A DNA stretch of 61,355 nt, filler included, from Dugesia japonica (lineage: Eukaryota), in assembly GCA_001938525.1 (NCBI GenBank). It is 4 parts of 4 records of this genome, joined end to end, with 100 filler letters (N's around TTAATTAATTAA, not from the genome) between each part and the next. Parts side by side here need not be neighbours in the genome. Positions count along the whole stretch, not along the records: positions 31,144 to 46,225 come from MQRL01500791.1; 3 more parts are not named here. One strand, 5' to 3'. The first letter of the stretch is position 1, and each line of letters begins with the position of its first letter. Of this stretch, positions 14,160 to 61,355 are shown in pieces. The position numbers and the translations under genes were made by a program. The notes under the pieces are model-generated. The model was not told the DNA's origin. It searched no databases and was given only the letters and a program-made list of their open reading frames with translations.

Positions 14160-14203
14160 NNNNNNNNNNNNNNNNNNNNNNNNNNNNNNNNNNNNNNNNN
14201 NNN

Positions 14204-16430: not shown

Positions 16431-17126
16431 TAATGCGAATAATTTCAACTTTGCATTTTCGATGAATTTAATATTTCAAATAATCCAATAGAATTTCAAC
16501 AAATAATTCCCGAATTTATGTTTCGTTTTTATACTGTAAATAATAATCGAACTGTTAAACATTATCTCTTCAATCATTAAAAAAGACGTTAATTAAGACG
16601 GGATAATTTACATTATTTCTACCACAGTTTTGTGTAGACCTGTTTCGACCAAAAAGTATCTTTTGAGATGCAAATAATTACCAAATTATCAGTTCAGTAT
16701 AGATAATTTATTAGAGATTATTTATCAAGTTTTCTAAATTCTAGCTTAATTCATCAATCTTTGAAATATAAATGGTATTTTTGTCAAAATACATAAACAT
16801 ATTTATAGAATTTATAAAATAATTAAAAGTAATTGTGGAATTTATAGAATACCTAAGAAAATAAATATACAAAAATTAATTTAAAAACAATTAATATAAA
16901 TTAATTGTTTAACAACTAATTACAAAAATGTAATCAAACATGCTTTACTTCAACAGGAATAATAATTAAAAAATATTATCTTCTTCATTTTGTATTTTTA
17001 TTAAAAAGATAATCAAACATTCTAATATTAATAACTTAACAAACCTTCAATCTCATATATAAAAATTCAGTCTTTGTAACAAAAAAAAACAAATCACAAA
17101 AGCAGCATTGTAATGAAATTCTATCC

Positions 17127-22390: not shown

Positions 22391-24559
22391 AAATTTAAGC
22401 TGAATTCAATTAGTTTTTTTTGAAATAGCTCTACTGCTTTTTCAGCCGGGCAACTGCCATAAATACGGACTAATCCTAAATTTTGTTGTTTTCCATCACT
22501 TTCGTGAATATTTTAATCGACCACTCATCTAACGTCAAATTAATTTTTTTTCTTTTATCTTATTATAGTTTGAAAATATTCAGCCAACTGTTTCTTTTTT
22601 TTCGTTGAAAATTCCATTACTAATTTTATTAAAGTTTTATTATTTTTGAGTAAAGAGTAGCCATGTCGTGAAAATTATTCTCGTATAAAAGAGCTCTTTA
22701 CAACACTACTTAACCGAAATTCCATATATTGCGACCAATTTTGGTAAAATTTCAGCCATTTATGGTTTTTTCAAATTTTTTTTCATTAATCCCTGTGTTT
22801 CTATCTTTTCCTTTTTTGTTACAGGTATGTATGTTTCTGATGATGTGCCTGGGTTATTGTTTGTTACATTTTAGTCAACAGATTTTCTTTTAATCTTATG
22901 TATATTTTCCAAATTTCAAATTAAACTTGATGTAGTAAATAAAATTTTGTTGCCTTTACTACAAGTTGCTCTTTCCTCTGCACAGTTTATTTAAAAATAT
23001 TTCCAAACCTCGGATTCCATCTCAAGGACTAAAAAATATATATTTAATTGTAATTAATTAAAACACAACTATATGAAATATTACTACCTAGTAATTCAAT
23101 TCTTTGCACTGAAATTGATTTCATTTTTAAATATTATGTGCATATGGAAAAATTAGACAGAAAATTGAAAGGAAAACTAAAATACTTGTAAAAAGGAAAT
23201 TACGTAACTAAAAAAATATTAAACTTTAGCCGTCCTGTCATCGGTAGTTGAAGTGATAGCAAATGTGGATAGTAATGTTCTATAAAGAAATTTGAATTTT
23301 AGAGCTTTTGGTTTGTGTTTACGTCAAGTTCCAGTTGAATATGAGCTAAATTTATTTTCTTTTTAGCTGGAGCTTTTGCAAACAGAAACTCGAGCTTTAT
23401 TTGTTACATTTTCGACGATTAAGCTCGAGCTGCCAACTCTAAAACCAATGTATAATTTATATGATTAAATGAATAACCTATGTAAATTAGATGAATTTGG
23501 TTATAACAGACTGTCTTAATCTTATTTGGTTAAACAATCCTAAAATAAATATAATNTACAATAATTAAACTAAATAATTAAATATAAAATAAGAATTAAA
23601 ATTAACCAAATAAAAATTTGATAAAAATAAATTATTTCAAAAATTATTACTATTATAAACATAGATCTTGAATAAATTAAAAAAGTAAATTCCTGATGAA
23701 GACAAGGTCAAAATATTGAATTGTTATTAAATATCAATAAAAAAANNNNNNNNNNNNNNNNNNNNNNNNNNNNNNNNNNNNNNNNNNNNNNNNNNGCTTT
23801 TATTTTAAATGAATTCTGTAAAACGATCAATGGTTATTTCCAACAATTATTCTCGCAATAATTGCAATTTTTAAACTTATTGTCCAATAAAATAATTCAG
23901 TTAGTTCCAGATAATTGCAATGGTGTCTTTACTAGTATCTCTAGTTGTTTTTAAAAGCGAATTAAAATTTTTTGTATATATAATATTTTAATTAAATCAT
24001 TAAAGAAATTTGTGAAATAAACATAAAAGTTTATGTAATTAAATGTTTCAAGAAAAGAAATTTTTAAATTTATAAATTAATTAAAACGAATTTATTAATA
24101 AATTAAAAATTTATAATTTATAGTTTATATTTAAAATTTATAATTCGTAGTGATAAATAATATATATTTCGGAAATTATTAAATTTCTTGCTAATTTTCT
24201 TTACAAAATATTTTTATTAGATTTTTAAATTTTATTAATAAAATATTTTAATAAACCAATTTTTTTATTTCCGACCCATTTATAATATTTTTAAAGTTTG
24301 TTTGAAAAGATAAATTTATATTTTGTGCTGTTTTTTTGTCTTGTATTTGAATAAAGTTTGGAAATGAAAAGTGTTGATTTTTTCAATGCAACGATGAGAG
24401 TTACAGGTTAATCTTACATGGTACATTCATATTGTTCAAGATCTTCAATGATAGAATTTAATCAATCAAAACCAATAACTATAAATAAGCTGATATTCGA
24501 AAAAGCAGAAATGAAAAGATAGAATCCTGATCAGAAAAAAGTATGCCACAAATAAAAAT

Positions 24560-25810
24560 CAAGTTATAAATATAAAAAAAATGAATAAAATTCCAGGTTC
24601 AAAATAAATTTAAAGCGTTGAAATATTAACCACAAAATATGAAATTACGCAGATTCTCAACTACGCAAAGGATGCCTCAGCTTTTGGACCAGATAAAATA
24701 AATTAGAAAATTCTTAAAAACCTTGATACTGAAGGAAGAACTCTAGGATATCTTTGTAAAATATTTGTAGAAAATTATAACGTTGTAAAATGCTGGAAAA
24801 CTTATAATACTCTCTTAATTCCAAAGAGCGATAAAGACAAAATTAATTATTGCAAAGTTGACAATTGTAGACCTATTTCTATTTTATAACATGTCTTTGT
24901 AATCAATTATTCAAATGGCTCGAAAACGATCAAGTAATTCAGAAGATTACACAGAGCATAATCTAACTTGGATATTTCTATTTGAAGAATCTAAAAGACT
25001 AAACTCAATATCAATATTTTCTTCACTGGTTTAGACGGTGCCTTTGGTAGTGTTACACTTGAAGTCATTATAAGTATATGAGTATATAAGTATATGAGAA
25101 AACTGATACAATAATATCATCAAATGAATTGAACCTTTTCCCTTGAACGGAGGAGTCCAACAAGAATACCAATTATTAATGTTGCTTTTCAATGATGTCA
25201 TTAACTCAGTACTTTGCGAAGTTAATCTGATTAATTTCACCGATAAGATTCAACATTTTGGCTGATTTGGTAATCATTCATAGAAATTCAGAAACATTGA
25301 TCAAACAAAATCATCACTTTGGCTTGAATGAAAATAAAATCGTCTAAATGTGCAGTAATATCAATTGAAGAAAAAAACCAATAGAGTATTTTATCAAAAA
25401 TAATGAAATCACCAACATTCAAAAAAGATCCAAAGAAATAATACAAATATCTGGGTATTGGAAGATTCATTATTCACAATTCCCATGATGTATGCTCGAA
25501 AATTCATCAAAGTAATCTAAACTTTTGTCTTTAAAAAAGAAGATGAAACTTTATCTGAGTTGAATCCAAAACAAGTTTTCATAACTTCTGAAATTCAGAC
25601 AAAAAATATCGATTTGACAAATATTCCAAGTCGTAAAAGTAATAAAAAAAAGATAAAAAGAAAAAAATCTCCGAATAAGATCCTGATAAAATAAACATCA
25701 ATTTTGAAAAGAAAACGAGATATGATTGCCGATGTGACAATAAAGAAGAAGATAATATTGAAAATACTAAAAGATTTCTATATGAATTGAAGAAAATTGA
25801 GAAATATGGT
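24560..25810 (+). pseudogene. Non-LTR retrotransposon reverse transcriptase remnant (R2/R4-like)
   Basis: Ordered motifs: SAFGPDKI (about 24675), CWKTYNTLLIPKSDKD, NCRPIS (about 24862), AFGSV (about 25040), GVQQ (about 25152), KYLGI (about 25445). Many stops. Confidence 0.75.
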
Positions 25811-30960: not shown

Positions 30961-31255
30961 TTTCGAATTATTCACAAAACATTTTCTTCTATTTAAACTC
31001 TTTTTTTAAAAAAATCTTTCTACTGATCAATAATAATAATAATNNNNNNNNNNNNNNNNNNNNNNNNNNNNNNNNNNNNNNNNNNNNTTAATTAATTAAN
31101 NNNNNNNNNNNNNNNNNNNNNNNNNNNNNNNNNNNNNNNNNNNTTATATTAAAATAAAAAACTTTAAATTAAAAATATTTTTTTTAATTTCCCGCCAAAA
31201 AAAAATTCTTAAAAAAAGGTAAAAAAAGGTAAAAAAAAAGTTTAAAAAAAAGGTA

Positions 31256-34019: not shown

Positions 34020-35700
34020 AAATGTCACGAGATAATGAAAAATTACTACAGTCTTATTTATTGCGGGAAAAAATATTATCTGTTTATCATTCACTGCATT
34101 ACGGTTAGATAAATACACAGAATTTTATAAGGCACATGTACATCACTTGTCTCAATTTTTTGAAAAGAAGAGGATAGTACTGAAGAAAATTCTCCAAGAA
34201 TCTCCACGTAAGACGTTTTAAGCAGAATCAGAAGTGAAAGTCATAGAGAATGATATTAATATAAAGAACAAACCAGTCAAACCAGAGGTTATAGTTATTG
34301 AGGATGATATTGAAGAAGAAATGGACTGGAATAATATCCAAATAATTGAAGAACTAAATCAAGAAGACCTTGTTGATGAAGATGATGCAGAAGAGGTACT
34401 GCAAAATTATTTGCAAGAAGAAGAAACACAAGTTGGTGGATCCATAGACGAATCGATTATTGAAACAGACTTGTACAAATGTCACCAGATCTTGAAATTA
34501 GATGTTTCAAGATTTAACATGAGAGAGATAATTTTACCAGTTTCTTTGGTACAAATACTAAAAAAATAATCAAAGAAATGAAGGATATAAAAATACAGTT
34601 CGGAATTCATGTAGAGTTCATGCGAGATCCTGAAATAAAAAATTTTCATTTATCTAAGAGTGCTGTGCTACATAGTTATAAGTTTTTCAAAGATGGAATT
34701 AGGGTATTGAATGAGAAATTCGTTTTAAGAAGCTATTTATGAAGCAGCTAGACACTTAGTAAGATTTTGGGAAATAAATTTCAAAATAACTAAAAATAGC
34801 AAAATAAGTAGATTTTCAAGCCGTAGTTAAATCTCCACGCCTTAAAATCTTGTAAGGAAACCAGCAATTGCTAACGTTAAAAACAAAGATGATAAATGTT
34901 TTCTGTATATCATTCTCACTATTCTTAAAGGCGATGTAGTAGGAAGGAATAAAAACCGTGCAGAAACATATAAGAAATACATAGATGACCTTAGATTGGA
35001 TGAAAATGATATGAGTGAATATTCCAAAATTTGGAAAACAAAACCCNNNNNNNNNNNNNNNNNNNNNNNNNNNNNNNNNNNNNNNNNNNNNNNNNNNNNN
35101 NNNNNNNNNNNNNNNNNNNNNNCCGAACATAGATATATTTCATGGATCAAAAGTTGAGGGTGGACAAAAGATAAATTTATTATTACTTGAAGATAAGGAT
35201 AAATTTCATTATACTGCCATAGTTAATTTGAATAAACTTATGAACAGAAATATTAAAAATAAAGGTGTACAAATAAAATCAAAATGGTGTTCCAATTGTC
35301 TGAATGAATTCAGATATAACAAAGCTTTCGAGACCCATGAACTTATTTGTGAGAAGATGCAGAAGGGATCAACTCTTTATAGAATTCCTACAGAAAAAGA
35401 ATTAGTATTTACAGATATTTTAAAACAGTGACTCAGCCATATGTAATTTATGCTGATTTCGAATCAGTATTGGAGAAGGATCTTGAACATTACCAGAAAC
35501 ATTTGCCTAAATCAGCAGGTTTTTCGTTAGTAAATAATTTTACTAACGAATATCAATACCATCAATTTATCGGATCAGACTGTGTTTACAATTTTTTGAC
35601 TATGATTAAAAAAATTACCAGAAGAAAAAGATGAAAATCACACAAGAAGAATATTCTTTATGAGTGTTTATTATGTAACATAGTGACTACTAGCAACTGA
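34020..35700 (+). pseudogene. Polinton/adintovirus protein-primed family B DNA polymerase, N-terminal half
   Basis: Acidic stretch ending QVGGS; KIQFGIHVEF; NVKNKDDKCFLYIIL; IPKFGKQN; INLLLLEDKDKFHYTAIVNLNKLM; CSNCLNEF..AFETHELIC; ExoI motif YVIYADFESVL. Confidence 0.85.
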
Positions 35701-36834: not shown

Positions 36835-37870
36835 CTGATGTGTTAATTCAGTATCTTTTAATGTTACCCCCTTAGCTTTCATGCTGGTCTTTTTGCTAAG
36901 AAGACTGTAACATTTCAGTCTCAGAAAAACCTATTCCTTGTATCTTTTACCCTTGCTTTCGCCTATGAATTTTCCTACAACGAAATTTGCTTGTTATTAT
37001 AAAGCGGATGTTCTGAATTATAATTTGAAGTGTCCAAAAACTCATTTTTAACAGTCAGTTTTAACAATCTTTCCAATCTAATACATTTCACTTCCAAGAA
37101 AAAGCTGTCGGAATCTCCTGCCACTATATTAATGATACATTTTTCATCTTTTCCGAATTTTGTAAGCTCGATGTTTTGAAGATGATAGATTCTTAGTTTA
37201 TTCAAGTCTAACACTGTTTGACCAATATAGGTAGGACGGTTGAGACAAACTTTATTTGTATTCAGCAATACAGAAATTAAATCCTGGTATATTTTAACTG
37301 TTTTCCTAAACCTAAGCTTCTACGCGTATGTAATAAGCTTTTTGGCTGAATTGCGCAGTCTGAGATTCATCTGTTTCTTTAGATTTTCTACTGTTTTTCT
37401 GACTGTTGTTTTAAAGCTTATAATAATTTTTATCTAAGTCTGATGTACTTTTCAGTCTTAGCTCAGTATTTACATCTATATACTTCTTTAAAATGTAATC
37501 TTGTGTGAACTTTATAGGTCTATGTATTTTAGCAATCGTAACACCTATCCGCATGTACAGTTGTAATAATTTACAATGTACAACATAATTCAGTTTGGTA
37601 GTATGTGTTAATAACAACTTGTTTACCTTACATCCTAGTGTGCTCTGATATTCAGCTCCAATGGGTAAATCGCTTAAATAATTGTTCAGCTTGTCCGGTA
37701 TTTTAATATCAACTTCTAGTATGCACCCATACGGTAATGAGTCTAGATCTAATGTTATACATTCATCTAATATTTGCTCTAATACAATATGTATCCATTG
37801 AAAATCCTTATATGGCAATTTCTGGCTTAATTTCGATCCATTTAAGTTATTAATATCGATGTACAAAAGC
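36835..37870 (-). pseudogene. Polinton/adintovirus PolB, C-terminal polymerase half
   Basis: LYIDINNLNGSKLSQKLP (motif A, DxNxLY), KNYYKL-NNS..K (motif B), RPTYIGQTVLDLNK, AGDSDSFF (motif C, DTDS), MKAKGV. Confidence 0.9.
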
Positions 37871-37873
37871 TAA

Positions 37874-40800
37874 GTGTTTTCGTCCGATTTCATATTGTTT
37901 GTTGTAAATTCGAATTGGATGATATCAAAGATCAAAGGGCTGGAACGAAAAAGAAGAGTTAAAGGAAAGTTCGAAAGAATAGAAATAAAAGAGTCAAATT
38001 TCAAAGTGGCAAAGAAAATAGTAGTATCATGGGGAACGATAATCCAAATAGTGCTGAAGGTAGTACTGTAACAAACACTGAAAATATTATAAGTAGTTGA
38101 CACGCATTAATACCAATGGGGGAGTGAACCACCACCCGTGACGATGCAATAAGGTAATACATTTCAGAGACTATGCTCAATAAAACCAACGTATCAATTA
38201 CAGCCACCCTGTTATCCAACAAGTCTATTGAAAGAAATGAAGCCAATTGAAATTAATAGAAGTATGAATGATAATGAACTAATGGATGCGGAAATAGAAA
38301 GACGGAACATTATGGGATTACCAAGTAACTATGTTTTGATAACCATAGCAAATTTAGGCAGACAACCAAAAATTGTAATACAGCTTAACGGAAAAGCCAT
38401 AAATGCTATTCTAGATACAGGGTCAAGTGTTACTATAATATCAGAGGAAATAGTGAACCTAGCTGCTTTGATAAATTTGGCACCTACTGAGGAAATTATT
38501 TGATCAATGTCCAAAAATGCACTTAATATAATTGGAATGATTAAAGTAGAATTGAATATTGGACGCAGAGAAATGAAGCACAATGTATTAGTGATGAGGG
38601 ATAGTCCAGTATTATGTTTTATTGATATAGACTTGTTGGAACAATTAGAAGGAGTAGCAATAGATGTGAAAACTGAAAATCTTATATATCGTCCTACAGG
38701 AGAAGTTTTTCATAGAGCACAAAAATTGTTTCTTAAACACGGCATTACTATACCAGCAAGACACAGGATGGTTTACTATGCGAATACGATAAACAAATCG
38801 GAAGAAGAATTTCTTTTTGAACCTTATGATGAATTCATGGAAAAGCACAAATTACCAATGTGTAATGGTTTAGTTACAGTGGTAGATAAAAAGTTACTGG
38901 TACGGTTCGTAAATTTCAGTGACAGACCACTGAAACTAAAAGCTAAAACTCGAATTGGACCTATCACACCGGTAGAAAAAATAATAATGAATCAATAATT
39001 ATCGCCTCAGGTAAAAAGATACAACAAACCGCTTGTCAAAAGTGAGAATCTTACTGAAAAGCAAAAACAAATTATGAATGAACTGTTTGAAAAATATGAA
39101 TGTGTATTTGCCAAACACGAATATTATCTTGGAAGAACTCATGTAATTAAAAAAAACAGGTGAATTAAGATTGTTCGTTGATTATCGAAAATTGAACAGT
39201 GTCACAAGGAAAGACACTTATCCATTGCCAATACCACAAGAGATTTATGATAGAATTAATCCGGCAACCCTTATATCAGTAATAAATTTAATAAGCGGAT
39301 ACGAGCAAATTGGAGTAGCGGAAAAATGCAAACAAATGACTGCTTCTACTGATGGAAGAGGATTTTATGAATGTACTACCATTTGGACTTACAGGAAGAC
39401 CAGCAATATTTCAACGGACCATGAATTATATCTTAATTGATTCAGATCATACGTTAGTATATATTAATGATAGTGTAGTATTCTCAACAAGTTTTGAAGA
39501 GCATTGAAAAGATTTAGAAGTGGTTTTTAAACGGTTGAATTAGCTAATATAAAAATTAAACCATCAAAGTGTGAATGGGCTAAAGAACCTGTGGTGTATG
39601 TTGGACATGTTTATCAAAGAATGGTATCAAGCTGAATCCAGATTATGTAATAAAAGTGCAGAAATTCCATACACCTAAAAATGTAAAGCAGGTTAGACAG
39701 TTTCTGGGATTAGCCAGATACTATAGAAGATTCATTCGGAATTTTACACAAATAGCCGAGCCATTGAAGAAGTTACTCATGTTTGAAAATAAATTTAAAT
39801 GGAGTCAAAAACAGCAACAAACTTTCGAAATATTAAAGAATAAATTGATATAAGAACCTATACTTAGACATCCAGATATGTCAAAACCATTTATTCTCAT
39901 GACGGACGCAAGAAATTATGCTATAGGAGCAGTATTGGGACAAAAAAATGAGGGAGAAAAAGATCATGTTATTGCGTATGCTAGTCAACTAAATAAACAT
40001 GAGAAAAACTATTTAACGATCGAAAAGGAAGCGCTAGCTATTATTTTTGCAGTACAAACTTACAGACATTACCTGATTGGTAAAAAATCTATCTATATAC
40101 AGACTATAGTCCATTACAATGGTTAATGACTCACCGGAATACAGCAAGTAGATTAATTCGGTGAGCGTTAAGTCTACAAGAANTTGACATTGAAATTAGA
40201 TACAGAAAGGGAAAGGAAAATGCCAATGCATATGCGTTATTGCGAATAGTAGAAGATAATATTGAAGATGAAAAGATAGTACTGGCCCTGATTAGACAAT
40301 CTACTAACATTGATGAGCTTAGAAAACAACAACGAAGGGATAAAGAGATAAATGAATTAATTCAAAAAACACCTACAGCAAAAACCAATCAAGGAATTAG
40401 TCAATTAATAAAGAATAAACAAAAAGATTTTGTGCAAGACGGAATTTTACAATGCATTGTGGGGAAATTGTAGAATTTGTAAAACCAGAACATTTGAAAG
40501 AAGCAATAATGTTACAATATCATGATGGAACCTTGGGAGGTCATCTATCAGCCAAAAAAACTATGTCGAGAATTAAAACTAAATATTTCTGGAAGACTAG
40601 CGAACAAGGTTTAAAAGAATGGTGTAGAACATGCGAGACATGCTTAAATAGGAAAAATACGGATACCAAAATTAAAATACCTTTAAAACCCATGCCTGTA
40701 CCTTCAGCACCCATGGAAATGACTGCAATGGATATTATTGGGCCACTGCCAGAAATAGTGAATGGGAATAAATATATACTTGTATTTTGCGAATATTTAA

Positions 40801-41520
40801 TTAAATGGCCATAAGTCTTTGCGTTACCAGATCAAAAGGCAGAAACAATAGCGCAAGTATTCGTTGAAAATATTTTATTTCGATACGGTACACCTCAAAA
40901 ACTATTGACGGATCGTGGAACAAATTTCACTAGCGATTTATTTAAAGCAATCACGGAAATATTTAAGATCTTAAAACTGACAACGTCACCATATCATCCA
41001 CAAACAGATGGATTTGTGGAACGATTCAATGGTACATTAATTAACATGTTGGCGTCTTATACGAATCGAAAACAGAAAGATTGGGATCTATTTATTGATT
41101 CATGTTTACATGCGTATAGAAATAGCGTACATTTTGGTGCAGATGAAACACCTTTTTACTTGACATACTTAAGGAGGAATAATATGCCAATAGATTTAGA
41201 ATTTCAACCACTGACAACTCAATACATGGAAGTACCTTACAATAAAACAGTAATGGTAGAGCGTGTGCATCTGAACATTAAGCATCAACAAGAAAACTTT
41301 AAAAGCCATAATGATGAAAACACTAAACATCATGGAATTAAAATTTGAGATTTAGTTTACTGAAATAAACCAGAACCAACGAAGGGCTTGATGCCAAAGT
41401 TAGAGACCATACAAAGGACCTTATGAAGTATGCGGAATAACTTATACAAATTTACAGTTAAAACCAATTAAAAATAAAAAGGCTGAACCAATTATTGTAC
41501 ATGCAAATATATGCAAAAGG
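37874..41520 (+). mobile_element. Degenerate Ty3/Gypsy LTR retrotransposon internal region (gag tail, PR-RT-RH-IN)
   Basis: PR: AILDTGSSVTII (about 38405). RT: FVDYRKLNSVTRKDTYPLP, PFGL...FQRTMN, LVYIND. RH: LMTDARNYAIGAVLGQ, IEKEALAIIFAV. IN: H-DGTLGGH..CETC, MDIIGPLP, TDRGTNF, YHPQTDGFVERFN, and GPY (about 41416). Gypsy domain order; stops and frameshifts; no LTRs seen. Confidence 0.95.
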
Positions 41521-41572
41521 CTCACGGAAGTGGATGCCCAGATATATCATTTAGATCAAAACAAAAAGCTAA

Positions 41573-42613
41573 AATGAACGGGACAATAAATTTCACAATT
41601 AATGCAAATGTGCAGTCGAAAAATGCATTATTACCCACGTTATTCGTAATCGGATGCTTAGCTAATGTATTAGGTCAGAATATTAGTCTGGGAGACAATG
41701 TTACAAAATTGAAAATTATGGACAGGATGACAATTATTACAAGATATAGCGTAATATTATGGTATTTCAAAAGTAATTCTGATGAAATGTGTTTGATTCG
41801 TAATTTGAATATATCATCAAGGTTTACGAGTTGAATTATAGAATTAACAAAATAATCATTCGAAACTTAAAAATTAACAGTGAATATGCATTTAAAATTT
41901 ATTATTTTGTCATTGAATATGTGGGTAAAAATACTACTAGTAAAATAAAAATGAAAGTTTGGTAGACAAGAATATGGACAGAGAAAATTAAAAACACGAT
42001 TGAAATTGAACCGCTTGATAATGAAATTCGTATTTATTGGAAACCAATTAATTATTTAAAGGTTACTATTGAATGTTTTAACTTAAATGCAGTGATTTTA
42101 GATACCCTGAATTGCCATAAAAGATTTATACGCTATGAAAATTTACAATCAAATATCGAGTATCGTATAAATATGATGTACTGGGAGAGGTACATCGATA
42201 AAAAGTTTACAGTGACATCTAAAAGGTGGGTTGAAATTGATAATATAAGCAAGTCATTAAACTAGTTTCGAAGAATAATAAAGTACAGATTGTGACACAC
42301 CCCAATTCTATAAAAGTGCAGATTAAATGGTTTACATCAGCGAATTATAGTAATGTGTATATCAGGAAAAAAATGATATTGCAACACTCACTAATGAACA
42401 TTCACAATATGAATTTAAAAATTTAAATTCTAATGAAAGTTATTATCTCAAAGTTAAATATTATGAAAAATCTAAATTGGAAAATCAATGGATACTATAC
42501 TTAGTAGAAAATAAATATATTCAATTAAATAAATCATTTTATGTTTTAAAAAATGACTCTTTCTATTTTAGAAATAATTCTACACTATCTAGTAAAAATC
42601 AAATTGTGCAGAC
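41573..42613 (+). pseudogene. Env-position ORF: signal-peptide-like segment plus about three fibronectin type III-like repeats
   Basis: LLPTLFVIGCLANVLG hydrophobic segment, then three roughly 90-100 aa units, each with an early Trp strand and a late NLxxNx(E)Y motif: SVILWYF...IRNLKINSEYAFKIYY; EIRIYWKP...YENLQSNIEYRINMMY; SIKVQIKWF...FKNLNSNESYYLKVKY. A few stops and frameshifts. Confidence 0.6.
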
Positions 42614-42846
42614 TACAGTAGAGGTATAAAGGCGCGAATGAGCTTGGACCCCCGATACCCTCAACTTACTGCAAATAAACATGAATTTCAATTTCGGGTA
42701 CTGCCAACGATGAATTTTCAGTTTTGGTCAATTCTTGAATAAAAATGAAAAATCATCATTTGTAGTTGTAAAAAATCAGAGTTTAACTGTTAATAATAAA
42801 TGATAAATGGGATAAAGCATCACCCCGCCTTTATACCTCTACTCTA
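42614..42846. mobile_element. ~230-bp MITE (TA-CAGTAG ends, Tc1/pogo-like)
   Basis: AGTAGAGGTATAAAGGCG (from 42617) and perfect inverted CGCCTTTATACCTCTACT (42826-42843), flanked by TA. Confidence 0.85.
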
Positions 42847-43680: not shown

Positions 43681-44115
43681 TTTTCCAATTCTTTAAAAAA
43701 TTCAGTTTTATTGTTTTTTAAAGAAATTTCATTGGAAACCAAGTTAGAACTAGTTGAATATTTTTTTCTTTATGTTTATGCTTTTTTCCAAGGTTCTAAA
43801 AACGAAGTAAATGTAAATGTTCCTGTTACATTTCTATTTTGAGTTATATTTCTTTTTTTCTTATTATATGGAATATTAAAGTGATTCAAGTATTTTCTTA
43901 TTGTTTATTCATTTACATCATTATCTTTAGCAAATTTCTAAACTGAGTTATTTACAAAATCATAGTCTAGTAATTTTTTATAAATATTATCGAATGTCAG
44001 AGACATTTATATGAAGTAAAATACTGTAATCCCTACTGTAATCCGTACTGTAATCCATACTGTAAACTGTATACTGTAAACTGTAAACAAAAGTTTTAAA
44101 TAATCTATATATAAA

Positions 44116-44475
44116 ATGGATAATGAATTATGTAAACAAAAACAGAGTTCAAAGTTGAAAAAAGAATTTTCTTTAACATTAACAACTTTATTGGAAACTT
44201 TAAAAAATGTACAAAATATTGAAAAATTTAGTCTAGATGATATTAATGCTTTAAGTGAAATTCCAATAACTAAAGAATTTGAGGAAAATAAAATGTTGAC
44301 ATTAGAAGATTTAACAAAAAAATTAAAAGGGGCTTCTAAAGATGAAGAAAGTATATTTAAAGCATGTTTTACTATTATAATGGCTAGTGATACAAGATCA
44401 GGATGTATTGAAATATTATATGATGATTTGAGTACAAGGTATAATGAAGTATCAGAAATGTATAAAAAGCAATGA
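44116..44475 (+). CDS. Hypothetical 119-aa helical protein, probably adintovirus/Polinton-like
   Basis: Intact ATG-to-stop ORF, intronless; its stop overlaps the next ATG (ATGA); upstream of the capsid gene. Confidence 0.5.
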   Translation: MDNELCKQKQSSKLKKEFSLTLTTLLETLKNVQNIEKFSLDDINALSEIPITKEFEENKMLTLEDLTKKLKGASKDEESIFKACFTIIMASDTRSGCIEILYDDLSTRYNEVSEMYKKQ

Positions 44476-44795
44476 ATGAATTGCAAAAAGAGCGGGATGA
44501 GCATAATAAATTAAGGAAAAAATATAAAGAGACATTGAAACCAGAAGTAGCAAGCTTGGGTGGANNNNNNNNNNNNNNNNNNNNNNNNNNNNNNNAAAAA
44601 CCAATATTGGCTAAAGATTATGTAAAAATACATAATCAAATACGACAGGTTCATGGAGATTTAAAAGAAGGAAAATTTACACGAGTGGCAGTACCAGATG
44701 GAATAGAAAATATTAGTAGAATTTATCTTAAACCAGCATTGGAAGATTCGGTTGAAATAAAACCATCAAAGGGTAATGTTGAAAAATTCAAGTAG
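44472..44795 (+). CDS. Hypothetical basic/coiled-coil protein, probably adintovirus/Polinton-like (contains short gap)
   Basis: ATGA overlap with the previous ORF; ends 27 bp before the capsid ATG. Confidence 0.45.
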   Translation: MNELQKERDEHNKLRKKYKETLKPEVASLGGXXXXXXXXXXXKPILAKDYVKIHNQIRQVHGDLKEGKFTRVAVPDGIENISRIYLKPALEDSVEIKPSKGNVEKFK

Positions 44796-44822
44796 GACTG
44801 TTTTAAAATATTTCTATGAAAA

Positions 44823-46041
44823 ATGGATCTAGATTATAATTATAAATTTGTTCATGTACAAAATAAAGTAGATGTATTAAAATTTTCACCAATCTCTGGT
44901 TCAATGGTTAATTTAAACAAAGCAGGAGAAGTAACATTTCAATCTTTACAAAACACAAATCCATTAGACATTCGAAATGAAAAATTGTATTACAAGATTG
45001 AAATTGAACCAAAAGATGCTATACTTGAAAATGACTGGTTTCCAAATTTGTTTAGTAGGATCATCAACTATAGAAAGTATTGAAAACCCTGGAGTGGCTT
45101 CTACAATGTTGAATTTAATTTTGATTGACGAATCTTGTTTAAAATCAGCAAGTGCATATAGATGGGTACCTGATGTTAAAAATGGAACAGCTGATGATTC
45201 TAGTTTTGAAGTTAGAAAAACCTTGTTTTCATCGGGTTTTTTTCCTCTATGTGATTTGTTTGGTTTTGTTCAAAATTATAATAGATTATTATTTATTGTT
45301 TTTATACAATTGCATTTGAATAGAAATGTACAAGATGAATTAATATTTTTTAATAAAACCAAGATTGAAATAAAAACTTTGGAATTACACATACCAGAAT
45401 GGACTTTAAATCCTAGATCAGAATTAAACTATTTGGAAAAACTAGCAACAAATAAAGGAATCCAAGATTTATTTCTAGAACGAGATTTAAATAAAAATTC
45501 AAATTCTAATGGAACAAACTTTTCAATAAAGATGGGAAATTTATCCTATAGACCAAGACTTGTAATTGTTGGATTTGATGTAAATAATAATTTATTTTCC
45601 TTGAGTAGTTTAATAACTAAAAAGATTACAGATCCAGCAGATGCANCAAAAAAGATTGATAAAGTGTTTATATATTATTTAAAAAGTATACAAATACAAT
45701 TGAATAATACATATTATCCAAATACTAGAATAGAATTTGATGACAAGAATACAATATTTCCATATCAGAATTATATAGACATGTGTGTAGCATTTAATTG
45801 TAGGCCTCAATTATCAATAAAACAATGGACTAGTTTGTATCCAATATTTTGTTTTGATACTTCTGCTCAAGATGATAAAACGACCATCAACAATGTAGAT
45901 GTAACATGTCATTTAACAAAGGATACAGAATTAACTGGGGATTTGTATTGGTTAATATTACAAGAAAACCATGTTGAATTTAAAATATCAAATGGAAAAG
46001 TTATGTTTGTAGAAAATATACGAGGGAGTGATGTAAAATGA
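44823..46041 (+). CDS. Double jelly-roll major capsid protein, adintovirus/Polinton type (one frameshift at ~45060)
   Basis: PISGSMVNLNKAGEVTF; PNLFS / IESIENPGVASTM...WVPD; PLCDLFGFVQNYNRLL; RPRLVIVGF; LKSIQIQLNNTYYP; LYPIFCFDTSAQ. About 400 aa and beta-rich, as in invertebrate adintovirus-type MCPs. Confidence 0.85.
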
Positions 46042-47199
46042 CCANCTGACTGATATTAAATAAGACTGAATGACTTAAAAGTGTTTATAAAAAATGGAGA
46101 CTTTTAAATGTCCAAAATGTAATTACAGCAAGAGCAAAAGTAACAAGTCACGACACTTGAAATATTGTAAAGAGAGCTCCCAAACAGTAAAAAATGTTAT
46201 TGGAAATTCTATTGAAAATGTAAATNNNNNNNNNNNNNNNNNNNNNNNNNNNNNNNNNNNNNNNNNNNNTTAATTAATTAANNNNNNNNNNNNNNNNNNN
46301 NNNNNNNNNNNNNNNNNNNNNNNNNATTTCAAAATAAAAATTATAACCATCATTATTTGTTTATTGAAACAAATTAAAACTATATGCTCTAATCGGAAAC
46401 TATTTTTCACAAATTGGAAAATTTAGATTTAAAACTTGATTTAAATTAATTTGAAAATTTACAGGAAATAATCATTTTTTAATAACATCCTTTAAAATTT
46501 TCACAAAATTTTAAAACAAAAAATGATCGTTTGTTAATAACATATTCTTTTAAAATTTTTACAAAAACTTTCATAAAATTTTCAAAACAAAATCACCTGC
46601 TATTAAATTATCATTTTAAAATCTTAACTTTCAAAACAAAATTGTCATTTCCAAAAATTTTAATTTTAAATTAATTTGTGATTTTTAAAAAAAAAGATTT
46701 TTCAAAAAAACAATTTTCAACCATAGCACAAAAATTTTAACTCGCTTCTAAACCACTCACACAGACTAACTTAATTCGAACTTTCTTTAAATTATTTTAA
46801 TCTATCAATTTTTTAAGATTGAAAGTTTTAATCATTTCTGTAAAATTATGCTAGTATTGATTAATTTGAATAAAAATAATTATACAATCAACCAAATTTA
46901 TGTGTTACTATAAAACCAATGAACTTGATTATTCAAAGTGTGTTAGATAATATAAAATTAAAATCAATTAAAAAATATATTTAAACAGAAAAAACAAATT
47001 ATGCTTGCAAAATATTTATTATGTAAGACTGATATGTGAAATTGTAACCTCAAAAATTTAAACGAAATGAATTTTTAACAAATTAAAAAATAATCATTAC
47101 ATTAAAAAGAATTAATAACAAATGCTAGCTGCAGTTAACAAAATTTTAAGATTAAAGTTAAGTGGAGTAATTAAAGAAAAATAAGTATGAATAATTATT

Positions 47200-47320
47200 T
47201 TTCAATTATTGCGAAAATAATTGTTGTACTTAACCATTAATCGCATTTGCTATTTCATTAAAATAATAGTTTCGATCTAAATGTTGTTTTGTTTCTTTTT
47301 TTGGTAGACATTCAAATTTA
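47200..47320. repeat. Arm of the foldback repeat family seen at 57330-57715, cut by the mariner insertion
   Basis: CATTAAAATAATAGTTTCGATCTAAATGTTGTTTTGTTTCTTTTTTTGGTAGACATTC is near-identical to 57334-57392. Confidence 0.75.
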
Positions 47321-48510
47321 TATTAGGTGTACCAAAAAGTAATGCGGATTTTTAAAAATCTATTTTTTTATCATATATGATTAAATAAATCTTATTGTTT
47401 ATATATTGTATTTTGTTGGAATATTCATTGATTATTAAGATAAACATTTAAATATTATTACTTTGTTAATATTTTTAGATTTAAACATGACAAAATTTAT
47501 TCCTGGAAAAGAGCATTTGCGTGTAGTGATGATCCACTATTTTATTATGTAAAAAACTGCTGCAGAAACATACTGCATACTTTGCAATGTCTATCGGGAA
47601 CATGCACCATCTCAGGATACCAGTGAGCGTTGGATAAAGCACTTCAAAAATTATGATTTCAATGTGAAGGACAATGAACATCCAGGTAGTACTTCTGCAT
47701 TTGAAGACCGACAAATACAAGCTTTATGGGATGAAGATGCATGTCAAACTCAAAAACAACTAGTCATGCAACTAGACGTTGCCCAGCAAACAGTTTTTGA
47801 TCACTTAAAAGCAATGGGCAAGATTTTTAAGGAAGGGATATGGGTGCCATATAAACTGGACGATAGACAACTGGAAAACAGAAAAGTAGTCTGTGAAATG
47901 TTACTGCAACGACACGAACGAAAATCTTTCTTACATAAAATTCTGACAGGATATGAGAAGTGGATTTATTATAAGAATCCCACACGCAAGAAATCATAGA
48001 TTGATCCGGGTCAAGATTAAAAACAGACTGCAAAGCAAAATCGTTTAGGAAAGAAAACAAAACTCTGCGTTTGGTGGGATCAAATGGTGTGGTATATAAA
48101 ACAAGGTCAAACTATTAATTCTGATAGCTATAAAAAACAAATAATGGAGCTGAACCAATGTTTGATTACCAAACGTGCAAAATGGGCAAAAAGACATGGT
48201 AAAATAATTTTGCTCTATGACAACGCATCGTCACATACTTCAAAAGGAGTAAAAAACATGTTAAAAGATCTAGCCTGGGAAGTACTCACCGTCAGCTATA
48301 CTCACCAGATCTTGCTCCTTCAGATTTTTATCTGTTCCGATCAATGGAACATGGACTTGCTGATCAGCACTTCAAATATTAAAAAGATGTCCAAAAATGG
48401 ATCTCTGAATGGTTCGCGTCGAAACACAAAAAATTCTTTTTATGTATCTTTTAAAATTTTCGTGTTTTGTTTTTCAAAAAAATTCGCATTACTTTCCGTT
48501 GCACCTAATA
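47321..48510 (+). mobile_element. Full-length degenerate mariner (Mos1/mauritiana-like) with TIRs and TA duplication
   Basis: TA-TTAGGTGTACCAAAAAGTAATGCGGATTTTT ... AAAAATTCGCATTACTTTCCGTTGCACCTAA-TA. Transposase MTKFIPGKEHLR (from 47488), WVPYKL, ILTGYEKW (catalytic D lost), YDNASSHT, YSPDLAPSDFYLF. Confidence 0.95.
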
Positions 48511-50379
48511 TTATTATTATAATTAATTTATATTTTAATTATAATTTTTGTAAGATTCAAAATAATTACAATTTTAAGCCATTTTTGACAAAAACAAATT
48601 TTAAAAAGTTGATTAATATATGCAAATTTGAAAGTGAAAGTATTTTCAATTGTTTTAATTTCATTTTCATCGCATTGTTAAATAGATAGCTAAATACTAA
48701 TAGTTATGTAGAATTTTAAATAGATTTTTCAATTGTAAATCATACTTTAATTAAGAAAAATATGGAGTTAAATACTGTGTTAAACTCAATTAATCTGGAG
48801 CCTCATGTCGGAAAAATTTGCCCTGTTAAAAAGGTGCAAAAATGATAGACTTCGACAATTACATAGAAACAATTATGTCCAACAGAAATCTAACAAAATC
48901 TAAGAATCAATAAATTATGCCACAAAAGAAGAATCTAATAAATCACTTGGTGTAAAGTATAGTTTTATATTAACTTTTTCGTTATGGAATATTTTCAAAG
49001 TCACACTGCTCCGAATACGTGTATAAACGTTAACCCTAGATAATAAAAATTGGAGTCTGGGCGCGATTTTTAAACTTTAAAATTTAAATCTTTACTAACT
49101 CGTGACTAACACACCACANNNNNNNNNNNNNNNNNNNNNNNNNNNNNNNNNNNNNNNNNNNNNNNNNNNNNNNNNNNNNNNNNNNNNNAGTATGTATATA
49201 ATTGTTTTAATTATTATTTTCAAAGTGGTGAATTTAGGTGGTGACATGCTGACATGTCTCACTACTCTCCTGTCCATCATTTATCGTATTGAAGGAGGCA
49301 TTTTGCACTATAACTCCTTTAGACAATGTATGAATGGTTTTCGATTCTCATTTCATTGATGGTTGTTTCAACCAAAAAATTGGAACTATCCACCGTAGAG
49401 TCAAATATTTTGTTTTAGCGATATCGTCAAGAAAACATTTATATTTAAAATTTTATTAGTGAGATATATTCTACTTTTAATTCTCTATCACGTGGTATCA
49501 AAAACTTGATGAATGTGATGCCAAAACTTTGATGTAGAACGATTTAAAAAAACATTTTAAATTTTAAATCTTTAATAACTCTTTACCCTTACATCTGACT
49601 AAAGTTAAAATAACGCCATTGTGTTTATCATCTTATTGCACATCCAACAATATCAAGTTTAACCAGAAAACATTTTTGAAGTGAACTTTGAACTATAAAA
49701 TCTATATGTACCTTTAGCCACCATTTTGAATTGGAAAGAAGCATTTTGATAAATTTTGTATGGATATGTTCCTATCTTAGTTTCTAATTTTCTATCTAAA
49801 TCTGAAAACCAGAATCCACGATCACTTCATAGGCGAGAGGAGGGGGCAACATAAGGAAACATATTCCCGATTAAACAATTATAGACAGTTTTTGATGCTG
49901 ATTCTAGTGGTGCTAATATGGTTTTGTATAAATTATTATTTCATTAAGTATAAACACTCATCCCTCGATTTACACGGTAGATACGTTCTTGAAAAAATCA
50001 TGCAAAACGAAACCGTGTATATACAGTTCATACAAAGTAGCCATTAACTATTATCATTATAGTGGTGTCGTGCGCAACATCCTTTATCTAGAGAACAACG
50101 CATTATATGACCAAAGTCCTTTAGGTAATGTATATGTAGTTTTTAATTTCCAGTTGAATGATACCAATATCGACTTGATCCGATAAAAATTGAGGTTGAA
50201 TGAGTTATCAACTTTACATCTTTAATAGCGTTTCACCATCACGCTTGATTGAACCCAGAATTGCACCATGAGATTCGCCGCGTCATTACGAATCCAACGA
50301 TACCATGATAATACCTGTACAATGAAGTATCATCCGGGAAAGTCAATATAAAAATATGAATTTATTTCTATATACAAAT

Positions 50380-56916: not shown

Positions 56917-57329
56917 CTAAATTATAAATAGTTTCAATTATAAATATTCACATAAAAATAAAAACAATAAAACTTCCGCAATATAATTTTATTGTTAATC
57001 AAATGATCTATAGTACCAAAATCAATTTTACCAAACAGAATTAATTAATTATAGAAACAAAATTATAATTATTAGGCTAAACTAAATTTCAAAATAATAA
57101 ATATTAGAAGTTTTAAAAATTAGTATTCCTTTAAAAAAATTGATTTTTCCAATTGTTTTTATACAATTAATACCTTTNNATTGAACATCATAGGGCATGG
57201 ATGGCAAATAAGATTTTATCAATGTACCAAAATTTAAAAATATTAACATCAATTTTTCCGATTGCTAAAACCTCATGTTTTTATACAAAGTGCAACGATA
57301 TAATTTTCTTGTAATAAATACTAAGTGTA

Positions 57330-57715
57330 TATCATTAAAACAATAGTTTCGATCAAAATGTTGTTTTGTTTCNTTTTTTTTGGTAGATATTCGAATTTTC
57401 GACTATTATATTCTTCGAGAATATGAAGAAAATTCATAAAATAAAAGCTTCGATCAAAATTTGTTTTTTTGGTTTTTGATAATAACTCTATATTTCGACT
57501 TTGTTTTCGTCAGGAATTGACTTTTTGATTCATTCAATATTTATTTTACAATATTAATTTTCTTTGAATTAATTTGTTTTTTTTAAATTTCAATAGTCGA
57601 AAATTCGAATATCTACCAAAAAAGAAATAACAACATTTTGATCGAAGCTATTATTTTAATGAAATCTTAAATGCGATCAATGATTAAGTCCAACAATTAT
57701 TCCCACAATAATTGT
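57330..57715. mobile_element. Foldback/palindromic MITE-like repeat
   Basis: About 75-bp arms 57334-57407 and 57592-57662 are reverse complements; family fragments also at 47200-47320 and about 23840. Confidence 0.8.
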
Positions 57716-59032
57716 AATTGTAAAACCAGATGTATTGGTTAATCATGCAGATCTATATTCAAGGAAAACAAGATAAACATCAAAAGTTCTTTATTCAAAG
57801 AAACTTCCATCGCTAGCAACACATTTCATTATCTTTCAGTTAATTTGTGGATTCCGTGTCATTTAGAACATTTTCTGTTTTTTCCTCGATATTTTAATCG
57901 GTAATTTCGTTATAGCGAATTTCAAAATGTTACTTGATAGATGACGTTCGTCATGCAACAATTTCAGATCACAGGCTGCAACTCCTCTTATCTTCATGTT
58001 AAACAATGTCGTAAACAATGGTTAAAGTATTTACATAGATTCGTACATATTGAAANNNNNNNNNNNNNNNNNNNNNNNNNNNNNNNNNNNNNNNNNNNNN
58101 AATTGCTTGTATTTAAATTAAAACACAAACTTATTAGTAAATAATTAATTACAAGTAGAAAGAAAACTTTCTCAATTATTTTATTGTTTCTTTGTTTAAG
58201 AAAATTTTTGCAGGAAAATTTTCCGTCGTGCCATATAATAGTCAACCGTTAATTATGTCAACAATTTTCATGAACTTTTAAACCCTCTTCCAATCTTTTC
58301 AACAACTATCAGACTTTCACTAACCCCTTAATAAGATGTTTACCCCTAACGGAGAGTTTATATTGCTAAAATATCGCATATTCAAAATCGAACAAGATAG
58401 TTGATGGAAGCGCAGCCGGATTATATGAGATAGGTTTAATTTTCAAGCAAAGAGAAGAACAACGTGAAATACTGATTAAATTACATACTACGTATAATAT
58501 ACAATTCATTAAAAACCATGGAAAGACTAACTGGATTATTGATTAGAAAGAAAATTTCACAATACTTTAATATCAAAAATAGCGAATATCAATAATCTCC
58601 CACATACATTTTCATCAACGAAAAGAAACCCAGATCCGGAACGAGTATTATCAATTCGAGCGTGTAATACGAAATCATATGAGTTATTTGTGATTACAAG
58701 ATATGCTTATACCTTTCGCTATGAATAAATGATTTTCTATTTACCAATGCTTCGAATTGTTGTTCTGAATAAACTCATTACTCTATCAAAAAGTGAAAAT
58801 CATGCTCATTTTAAAATTTGTCAATCTCTTCATCTCTTGTAGTAGCTGTCACTATACATGAAAAGAAAACACACTTCCTGTATCTTGTTGTTCCACGAGA
58901 TGAGCTATTAGAAAGAAATTTGTATNNNNNNNNNNNNNNNNNNNNNNNNNGTCTTTCAGCCAGTAGCCATTGTATAAAAAAATTGATGTTATATATGTTG
59001 AGTGGTCGGCAAACAGTTATTTTGACGTCACA

Positions 59033-59235: not shown

Positions 59236-59699
59236 ATTAAAATTCAAAAATTTGACGTCAACTGATTTCATTTTAATAAATTTGAATTTTTACATTTTCT
59301 TATATAATTAATAGTTTTGTAAGTAAATNAGTTTTAATAAGCAATCAATTCAAATTTTAATAAGGATGTGTTTCTTTAGTTCACATATTAAATTGAATCT
59401 TGGTTCGATGCTCGATAAACATAAAGAACATAAAATAAACATAAATTTGACACGGTACACCTGAGAAATCACCGTGGAACACAGTTTACCGACCACTGCA
59501 TTAGTAAAATAATAAAATTTACAAATGAAGTTTTCCAAATAAAAGAATTNTTTAATTATTAATTATTTTTNGAGTTCAAAATAATAAAATACTTTCACAA
59601 ATAAACATAATTTAAAATTATAAGATTATGAAAAAATTTAGTTTAAATTTCACAAAATAAAATACGTAATTTAAAAAATAATTAATGTAATAACACTTA

Positions 59700-60255
59700 C
59701 AAAATCTTTATATTTGCTTATATTTGTAATTTTTAATTCCAAAACTCCGGTTGGTCTTGCTGGGTCATTTTCAGAATAGAAATCATCTAGATCATCATAA
59801 TATCTTGAATCATCACTTTTATTAATCGAAGAATTTCTAGTTCTTTCATAATCATCATTAAAATCATCATTTTTATTGTTTGGATTATGTTGAAATAATT
59901 GCTTTTTCTTTTTCTTATCGTTTGCTACTTTTTCAGGGGAACTGTTTGTAATAACATTTCCATTTGTTACAGAATTTTTAGATTTATCAATTTTATCAAT
60001 AGGCATGACACTCTTTTTTATATTTATATCCTCACTATCATTATTTTTTTGTTCAGATTGAGAACGACGTATTGATTCTGTTTCTTCTCGTTCGGTTCCA
60101 GGCGACACATCAAATGAATGACGTGTGCCAGGAGTTAATTGATCCGAAATATCGCCTTTATTATTTATTTTAGTTTTATTTGAATTTTTAGCTTTCAATT
60201 CCGATGAACCTGTTGTAACTTTAGCGTGTTTGCTCGGTACTCGCCCAATATTTGC
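59700..60255 (-). CDS. Large exon of a host gene: low-complexity N/S/K/D-rich region ending at a possible MATH-domain start
   Basis: Long open frame (ANIGRVPSKH...DDLDDFYSENDPARPTGVLELKITNISKYKDF), strong phase-0 donor |GTAAGT at 59699. The final strand pattern resembles the first strand of MATH domains (USP7-like). 5' splice structure unresolved. Confidence 0.6.
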
Positions 60256-61355
60256 TTGTAAAATAAATTAAAAAATCAATAAATTATTTTAGCTAAAACG
60301 AAATTATATTAAATCCCTAGTTAAACTTTTAAAGAAAAAAATAACTTTCAATATAAAAATCCTTTAATTAAACAATTTAGTTTTCATTTAATTTATTTTT
60401 AAAATTTATGAAATCAATAAATAATTCACTAAAATAATTATAAATAATAAGTTTATATTTTGCAATTGAATCATTTAAACAAATTACATTTGAAAAGGAA
60501 TTTAAAAATGAAGAACCATAAAAGTATTTTATACATTTTTTATATTTATAATTTTAGCATATATTTAATTTATAATTTTTTGACTAACCATACAATTTGA
60601 TAAAACTTTTATAATTTATTTTTCTAGTTTCGTGAATTTNAAATATTTAAAAATACCAATTTTTCGTCAATTTGAAGTTTGAATTTTATCCATCAAACGT
60701 GAAATACATTAAACTAAAAATACTATACTAAAATATTTTTTTATTTACCATTGATGACGAGAAGTTAATTCTGCTTCACAGTTTGTGATATTATACAGCA
60801 TTTGACAAAAATAACTATTAAAGTTGACCAGATTTTCGTCAACTTCTGCTTTTAACTTATCCCTTACGATTAATTTTATTTCAAAAATAGCATTTTTAAT
60901 AGGATTCAATATTTAAAAATACAGAGAATGAAACTTAAATCCGAATTCATATTGACTTGTTATTTGTAAGAGATCTGGCTTTTCAAAAAAATTTGCATTA
61001 ACTTTTAAAAGAGTTGCTGCATGGGATTCTTTCAGAATTTCATAACCTATGTCACAATTGGAGTTTAGATTTTCTTGAAATTTGTCGATAACATGTGACT
61101 GAAGGTGATATCAGTGAAGGAATCTTGTTCTTAGCCTTGTGATTTTAGATAACTTTAAAGTTGCTACAACTTAAATGAACTATACTGAAGGATTTTCAAA
61201 ACAATTCGGAAGCTTCATTGTGACATGATAGTTTTCCGATATTTCGCTATGTACCGAATTACAATACATAATAATTAATCAAGAAAATCAACAGTGACCT
61301 TTTGATTAAATCGACAAAATTGTATTGCAAACAAACAGTTAAAACAAATTGTTGT

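Follow-up and report, generated by a model that had tools for sequence, protein, structure and literature searches.

A tandem FN3-like membrane tail fused to the integrase of a Ty3/Gypsy lineage, apparently unreported, with a decayed copy in Dugesia japonica

The latest wide-ranging survey, by Chary and Hayashi, whose main text describes searches with F and gB baits, sorts every Env protein of metazoan Ty3/Gypsy elements into an F or a gB type (PMC13524379). These errantivirus-type elements combine a Ty3/Gypsy Pol with a signal–ectodomain–transmembrane protein beside pol, and in some lineages env stands before pol, in a position resembling that of a second module in one of the proteins described below, P0004 (PMC13524379). 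That main text contains none of the words "fibronectin", "FN3" and "immunoglobulin"; the survey's supplements list elements and could hold members of the clade considered here. In Atlas virus, Gag, Pol and Env form a single polyprotein, and there and in related nematode Bel/Pao elements the surface protein lies C-terminal, after the integrase, and ends in a transmembrane helix; it is a phlebovirus-like class II fusogen with FN3 topology in domain III only, and with another core and other disulfides (PMC9094657). Env-free passage from cell to cell via a small membrane protein has been described for sORF2 of the MDG1 group, a short FAST-like protein from an ORF of its own, with a very small ectodomain, amphipathic and myristoylation motifs, and a single helix followed by a basic patch (PMC11952523). 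Finally, bdelloid ORF3s, planarian Burro (with env in frame within the polyprotein) and the Oikopleura Tor Env illustrate the capture of varied extra domains by Ty3/Gypsy-like elements; the cargo treated in the main texts comprises F-like Env, small transmembrane ORFs, GDSL, DEDDy, BIR, BCL2 and MATH, and "fibronectin" occurs in none of the three (PMC5408684, PMC6431247, PMC4402516). Full-text searches, largely of openly available papers, turned up no LTR retrotransposon described as encoding an FN3 protein.

Our analysis of a planarian locus and its relatives points to a different arrangement. Judging by sequence and hydropathy, the Pol protein of this lineage very probably ends in a type I membrane glycoprotein, with the order integrase, basic RYxLR-like end, signal-like segment, one to three FN3-fold units, stalk, transmembrane helix, basic stop-transfer patch and a short tail closing in [S/T]-x-[V/L]. 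An FN3 tail behind the integrase is apparently an unreported trait of a Ty3/Gypsy lineage. Where the errantivirus-type Env of the survey's main text is F or gB, this clade has a tandem FN3 ectodomain fused to the integrase; unlike Atlas virus it has free-standing FN3 repeats without a fusion domain; and unlike sORF2 it has 100-300 residues of folded ectodomain joined to Pol. Cellular type I proteins with FN3 repeats (fibronectin, tenascin, DCC/neogenin, CD45, cytokine receptors) share the seven-strand sandwich, the L-x5-Y before strand F and the sequence of signal, repeats, helix and tail, whereas in the clade identity in structural matches is 8-19%, introns are lacking and the units reside within a retroelement polyprotein.

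The window, by which we mean the whole stretch of 61,355 nucleotides analysed, filler included, is AT-rich (G+C 17-35% per kb) and contains many assembly gaps. N gaps with a central TTAATTAATTAA at 14104-14203, 31044-31143 and 46226-46325 are linkers at which separate contigs were joined. The Gypsy copy, at about 37870-42613, sits amid a patchwork of other element remnants recognised by Pfam and ORFs: a minus-strand B-type DNA polymerase fragment ending at 37869 is followed by the Gypsy copy, a MITE, low-complexity repeats and gaps, a capsid fragment and a mariner. The features of the Gypsy copy and the MITE are as follows.

38145..38176, + strand: CCHC-like Gag zinc knuckle remnant, split by a frame change (three-frame translation, ORF 38153-38503)
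38363..38467, + strand: aspartic protease active-site region (Pfam RVP E 5.9e-5, gag-asp_proteas E 1e-4)
39147..39853, + strand: reverse transcriptase, broken (Pfam RVT_1 E 1.2e-4; tblastn with P0002 and P0004)
39854..40200, + strand: RNase H (Pfam RT_RNaseH_2 E 9e-27; P0002 88% identity over 83 residues)
40479..41403, + strand: integrase zinc-binding region and core (Pfam Integrase_H2C2 E 9.7e-18, rve E 1.6e-5; P0002 78% identity over 289 residues)
41404..41546, + strand: integrase GPY/F C-terminal module (GPYEV 41416-41430, VHANICK 41497-41517; P0002 73% identity)
41547..41675, + strand: linker, then a segment resembling an internal signal peptide, its hydrophobic core at 41628-41675 (aligned to P0002 783-865, z 33)
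41700..41975, + strand: FN3-like unit 1, with one frame change and one stop (aligned to unit 1 of P0002 and P0003)
41978..42241, + strand: FN3-like unit 2, open (AlphaFold2 with a 9-row alignment; FN3 matches by Foldseek and VIA-align)
42253..42545, + strand: FN3-like unit 3, with a frame change before it and one inside (second half Pfam fn3 E 0.014, aligned to P0003 665-741)
42546..42613, + strand: start of a membrane-proximal stalk, cut by the MITE (alignment to P0003)
42614..42846, no strand assigned: MITE with TA at both ends and terminal inverted repeats matching at 21 of 25 nt (inverted match; single copy in the window)

Elsewhere in the window, Polinton/Maverick-like remnants lie at 34222-35634 (+), 36975-37869 (−) and 44104-46041 (+). 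Pfam recognised DNA_pol_B_2 at 37411-37866 (E 2.4e-4) and a double-jelly-roll capsid at 44968-46038 (E 3.1e-7, in a fragment spanning 44968-46041) and returned no match for the plus-strand polymerase-like pieces. Fragments of Mos1-like mariner transposases occur at 396-719 (−), 1521-1868 (+) and 47553-48689 (+), a decayed non-LTR reverse transcriptase remnant, judged by eye, at about 24700-25500 (+), and an inverted-repeat family, probably another MITE, at 57328-57717, relatives of which recur at 47200-47302 and 23804-23876. Probable host exons at 15789-16475 (−) and 59671-60267 (−) matched nothing in Pfam or the PDB; the first we take to recall a C-type lectin, and the second presumably ends in a MATH-like strand.

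The window element is a dead Ty3/Gypsy copy truncated on both sides. Pfam places its domains in the order PR-RT-RH-IN at 38363-41345, and the integrase, with its H2C2 finger, core and GPY/F module, is akin to Gypsy integrases; the named proteins among its 54 database matches are Gypsy-type, from Hydra, tick and frog. Of gag, only the broken, CCHC-like knuckle at 38145-38176 was recognised, and it had no Pfam match; its second half shares the frame that leads to the protease, hinting at a single Gag-Pol-FN3 frame. No LTR was seen in the window, since the Gypsy region has no second match within it, and no long direct repeat was found.

Behind the GPY module the reading is broken into pieces A (ending at about 41800), B (41804-42262), C (about 42244-42370) and D (42354-42613). 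The preliminary description had reported a Gypsy element followed on the same strand by a region decayed by stops and frameshifts, and this is borne out by the domain order, by the GPYEV and VHANICK motifs, and by four frame changes (near 41540, 41800-41820, 42245-42260 and 42355-42370) and one stop (41963-41965, in B). The hydrophobic, signal-peptide-like segment that it had noticed was likewise located at 41628-41675 (hydropathy 2.5 over 11 residues); the counterpart of linker and segment in P0002, residues 783-865, is in frame with that protein's integrase. The FN3-like motifs NLKINSEY, NLQSNIEY and NLNSNESY are present at 41864, 42140 and 42420, and the three repeats of about 90 residues align with each other and with the relatives' units. 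In a leave-one-group-out HMM four of the five window pieces beat all 200 shuffles, and the score of the short piece u3a was reached by 30 of 200; the first half of unit 3 had no significant match in HMM tests or in alignments to relatives. The window units have an early tryptophan strand, which the relatives do not conserve. N-x-S/T sequons are mildly enriched in the window (9 among 310 residues, where shuffles average 4.1; P ~0.01), and their number reaches P < 0.05 in only one of five relatives. In Pfam, pieces A and C had no match, piece D gave sub-threshold matches to fn3 (E 0.014) and ILCR1 Ig-like (E 0.012), and piece B to an Fn3-like model (E 0.032); unit 1 of P0002 matched fn3 at E 0.21 in a whole-protein search.

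A fourth unit had been proposed to begin at KNQIVQT, before a MITE at 42614. The MITE, presumably of Tc1/mariner type, is there, with its TA ends and inverted repeats; the fourth unit is not. Piece D aligns to P0003 665-741, and P0003 has its helix from residue 773 on; the MITE therefore interrupts the window copy about 25 codons before the helix, and the supposed unit is stalk, leaving three units. Neither tblastn nor three-frame reading found the rest of the protein behind the MITE, and helix and tail are absent from the window. The terminal transmembrane helix for which the preliminary description had asked for a test is present in the complete relatives, the window copy being cut short of it.

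These relatives were found with the integrase as query among longer proteins (54 matches of 285 candidates) and are single-member predicted proteins, each read as a protein sequence by itself. All of the six best, 53-77% identical over the query, continue past the integrase in the same frame. P0002-P0006 carry in-frame tails of 196-439 residues after GPY+45, and among themselves their integrases share 58-86% identity. P0002 breaks off within unit 2; the other four, P0003, P0004, P0005 and P0006, run complete to a stop codon. For P0002, the closest relative, the label names a Turicibacter MAG, most likely through misbinning of a eukaryotic contig. By tblastn, P0002 411-871 falls on 40461-41819 (63%) and P0002 874-977 on 41822-42142 (49%), and P0003 494-651 on 41831-42337 (24%, E 1e-6); Smith-Waterman z values of the window pieces are 33-37 to P0002 and 5-7 to P0003. 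The tails diverge far faster than the integrase while keeping their layout: compared with P0002, identity is 44% for window piece A, 50% for piece B and 78% for the integrase; it is 44% between the P0004 and P0005 tails, against 86% between their integrases; and other tail pairs reach at most 25-29%.

Does the region belong to the element or to its surroundings? The window copy is decayed, without LTRs and placed among other element fragments, which would suit a piece of a host FN3 gene lying next to a single insertion or transported with it as a neutral passenger. This reading is by now scarcely credible and largely refuted: the region is open and in frame with Pol in five relatives with such similar integrases, which in itself counts against an abutting host gene, it has no introns, and protein searches found no host-gene homologue. 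The earlier concern that other family copies might lack the region is thus removed. The separate ORF first described at 41573 does not survive the same comparison. A start coupled to a stop at 41574-41577 was considered, the ATG at 41574 overlapping the stop of the GPY frame, and was rejected because the relatives read through in the integrase frame. The ATG has no counterpart there, and the alignment of piece A to P0002 already begins at nucleotide 41553, ahead of the presumed start codon. The region thus forms the C-terminal portion of Pol, and decay is the simplest source of the ATG. Of the proposal that the lineage captured an FN3 surface module, the tie to the retroelement lineage, the FN3-type fold and the transmembrane helix stand, but the module is a C-terminal part of Pol instead of an ORF3.

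An integrase tree of 52 rows (the window and 51 of the 54 matches, with P0024, P0033 and P0036 dropped as too short; midpoint root) unites the window with P0002, P0009, P0003, P0004, P0005 and P0006 in one clade (95/89); a label shuffle was unremarkable (21/500). The sequence of P0009 ends inside the integrase. The next rows are P0007, with a different, cysteine-rich tail and helix, and P0008, without a tail. Of 55 fetched proteins, P0002-P0006 alone matched a nine-unit profile, which also scored units outside its alignment, at 43 bits (P0004 1480-1551), 30 (P0002 924-977) and 29 (P0003 454-523), and more weakly at 13 (P0003 643-722 and P0004 1590-1657) and 1.4 (P0005 1256-1316). Between the subgroups window/P0002/P0003 and P0004/P0005/P0006 there was no significant pairwise tail match, and in a leave-subgroup-out HMM, with marginal cross-subgroup scores, only some units beat all 200 shuffles; from this we consider a single origin of the FN3 tail likely, not demonstrated.

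Other searches returned little. A word-based homologue search with piece B among longer proteins gave 305 candidates, none at E <= 1, and unit 2, run by HMMER against the full set of 1.84 billion representatives, had a single match, P0056, a low-complexity repeat that we judged spurious. P0003 330-821 against proteins of 1438-4105 residues gave 3190 candidates, none at E <= 0.001; P0004-P0006 fall within this range and were yet missed, so searches with the FN3 region overlook true relatives. No donor stood out in these protein searches. Genome contigs, eukaryote assemblies excluded, gave 115 pattern matches with the integrase and none confirmed, and a PHROGs search gave nothing useful.

That the units have the FN3 fold is suggested by modelling and profile comparisons, individually modest but concordant. 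Unit 2, the only one modelled with confidence, gave a pLDDT of 45.9 and mixed Ig-like matches (best Z 7.5) from its single sequence; with an alignment of nine rows (unit 2 and eight other units or part-units), AlphaFold2 predicted seven strands (8-13, 16-21, 28-34, 39-45, 50-54, 63-74 and 77-87) at pLDDT 87.5 and pTM 0.72, a beta-sandwich of about 90 residues. Foldseek against the PDB gave 16 matches at E <= 0.001 (TM 0.50-0.60, rmsd 4.5-7.5 Å), among them monobodies, Tencon/Centyrins and FN3 domains of fibronectin and collagen XX; we take all 16 to be FN3-scaffold chains. Across 48,161 chains, VIA-align gave Z 7.2-8.2 at rmsd 2.2-4.3 Å over 68-84 residues, values common for this tool, mostly for FN3 domains, with a de novo designed Ig ranked first. 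In a search of PDB sequences with the unit profile, titin, CD45, neogenin, fibronectin, DCC and tenascin came out on top (best E 0.0015), and proteins that we take to be FN3-bearing fill the first 8 rows and 28 of 39. Atlas features placed P0003 440-760 and P0005 1125-1350, hence both subgroups, in FN3 clusters (0.90-0.91), with 148-165 shared features, below the 170 typical of same-family matches; the best matches shared a family in 10 of 10, as they do for a third of shuffled proteins. Every Pfam fn3 match lies below the cut-off: two of nine aligned units match (best E 0.0081), and the best score against PF00041, 16 bits (E 0.014), falls short of the gathering score of 25, so the units are FN3-like and too diverged for that family. 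Of the presumed FN3 hallmarks, the L-x-P-x-T-x-Y tyrosine corner and a strand-B tryptophan, leucine and tyrosine are found in most units, proline only in P0006 and tryptophan only in some. The fold check called for at the outset thus came out in favour of a seven-strand FN3-like unit, and the case of no predicted FN3 or Ig fold did not arise. A homodimer prediction for P0005 1125-1345 scored 0.01 and carries no weight either way.

By hydropathy, P0003-P0006 each have a signal, an ectodomain with sequons, one helix and a cytoplasmic tail. The helix is a single 19-residue segment in all four complete tails (mean hydropathy 2.75-3.24), directly followed by basic residues and then by a tail of about 24-84 residues. 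A strong hydrophobic segment follows GPY in 8 of the 34 matches in which the motif was located (P0003-P0007, P0022, P0027 and P0032), the other 20 of the 54 being left unscored. The signal-like segments, of which that of P0003 is weak (1.63), end in small residues (VLG, VCG, SQA, IQA, IQA, VVA), in line with the cleavage rule for signal peptides. No methionine separates the GPY module from the signal segment in three of five relatives, which favours threading from a polyprotein. The complete tails end in STLV, ETIV, ETLV and ETSL: [ST]x[VIL] closes all four, against 2 of 49 other matches and a composition background of 0.03. We take [ST]-x-[VL] to be a PDZ-binding pattern of class I; given the close kinship of P0004 and P0005, it counts about three times rather than four. 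In P0006, residues 1-435 hold two aspartic protease domains and a C2H2-like finger before the reverse transcriptase.

Could such a protein itself fuse membranes? FN3 units might bind a receptor while stalk, helix and tail drive merger in the manner of small cell–cell fusogens; the env position fits, as does the basic patch behind the helix in four of four complete tails, a feature of sORF2 and FAST proteins (PMC11952523). We regard this as very improbable. The relatives' tails (337-450 residues, 4-10 cysteines) are built of 90-residue repeats, an ectodomain far larger than that of sORF2 and without a second hydrophobic segment at the thresholds used, and R-x-[KR]-R occurs in one of six tails. 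P0006 has an RRTRR site between signal and FN3 unit. All-beta repeats, the rarity of R-x-[KR]-R and the lack of an internal hydrophobic peptide differ from class I, F-type errantivirus Env, and 90-residue repeats with unit 2 as a stand-alone sandwich differ from gB-type (class III) and phlebovirus-type (class II) Env. Against a viral structure library unit 2 had no match at E <= 0.001 (best 2.7e-3); several of the best 50 matches are named FN3 proteins from phages or giant viruses and none is a named fusogen, an absence that by itself excludes nothing. As far as sequence and model indicate, the tail protein falls outside the F, gB and class II Env families and does not belong to the fusogens of class I, II or III, and it would work like an env-position surface protein.

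The place behind the integrase holds other proteins elsewhere in the tree. P0007 (about 1060-1349, cysteine-rich, sister to the FN3 clade) and P0027 (about 390-686, elsewhere in the integrase tree) have Pol-fused signal–ectodomain–helix tails without an FN3 match or a Pfam name, and that of P0007 did not match the FN3 unit profile. P0022 and P0029, the latter from a Hydra vulgaris record, have long Pol-fused tails after a chromodomain; the P0029 tail has a weak Pfam match to a rhabdovirus glycoprotein (E 0.003), and P0022, without a Pfam match, has a furin-like site and hydrophobic peptide that to us recall F protein. In P0048 and P0049 the integrase precedes the reverse transcriptase, an order that we take to be Gmr1-like. 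The other ectodomains of P0007 and P0027 would suit a host-modulating cargo, an FN3 ectodomain serving as decoy, receptor mimic or superinfection block with no role in particle transfer, and so would the matches of the fold to cytokine receptors and receptor phosphatases besides adhesion proteins, the fast divergence of the tail, compatible with an arms race, and the many non-entry extras treated in the main texts on bdelloid and planarian elements (PMC5408684, PMC6431247). The position and topology are, however, those of the fusogen-like tails of P0022 and P0029, and co-synthesis with Pol ties the protein to the replicating cell; we consider this cargo rather unlikely.

P0004 carries a further module. 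Its residues 1-250, in frame with Pol before the protease, comprise a second signal, one FN3-like unit, a stalk and a helix, with z 5.0 to its own tail, 6.7 to that of P0005 and a consistent topology; nothing like it is found in the window copy. With membrane modules on both sides, the enzymes would stay in the cytosol between them. This flanking, the fusion of the FN3 part to Pol, the variation from one to three units and their poor sequence conservation would also fit a module that tethers Pol (and Gag, if in one frame) to ER or endosomal membranes, for particle assembly at that site or entry into extracellular vesicles, with FN3 as a passive lumenal spacer. A folded ectodomain repeatedly kept and duplicated, with a PDZ-like end, is more than such an anchor needs, and we find that reading improbable.

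Viral polyproteins with internal signals are threaded into the ER, released by signal peptidase and delivered to the cell surface. By analogy, the internal signal of the Ty3/Gypsy tail would direct its FN3 units into the ER, their separation from the integrase would fall to signal peptidase together with the element's protease, and the FN3 protein would reach the cell surface, where the PDZ-binding-like tail might keep it at junctions or another polarised membrane. There, and of this step we are least sure, it could act as an attachment or adhesion factor that brings capsid-bearing membrane to a neighbouring, ideally germline, cell, uptake or fusion being provided by the host or another element. 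The cell-to-cell route that sORF2 offers is the one that we propose here (PMC11952523). From position, topology, fast divergence and tail motif we consider it about an even chance, and the best of the readings, that the Pol-fused surface protein serves attachment or the passage of capsids between cells and has no fusion machinery itself; fused to Pol, it may be made in small amounts. More tentatively, we speculate that a cell-adhesion-type FN3 receptor, anchored at junctions by its PDZ-binding tail, has taken the fusogen's place and that spread proceeds by adhesion and host uptake. The post-integrase slot would then be an exchangeable ectodomain cassette (one to three FN3 units, the cysteine-rich domain of P0007, another in P0027, fusogen-like ones in P0022 and P0029), copyable to the other end of Pol as in P0004.

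What would be the relevance of such a tail? If our interpretation is correct, the lineage adds to the two viral fusogen types a further type of protein in the Env position, built on a cellular adhesion fold, to which searches that start from F and gB baits, as described in the survey's main text, would be blind (PMC13524379). The intact natural relatives P0003-P0006 are a testable object for the function of ectodomain and tail. The finding would also bear on how retrotransposons first left cells, in that attachment may precede a fusogen or dispense with it.
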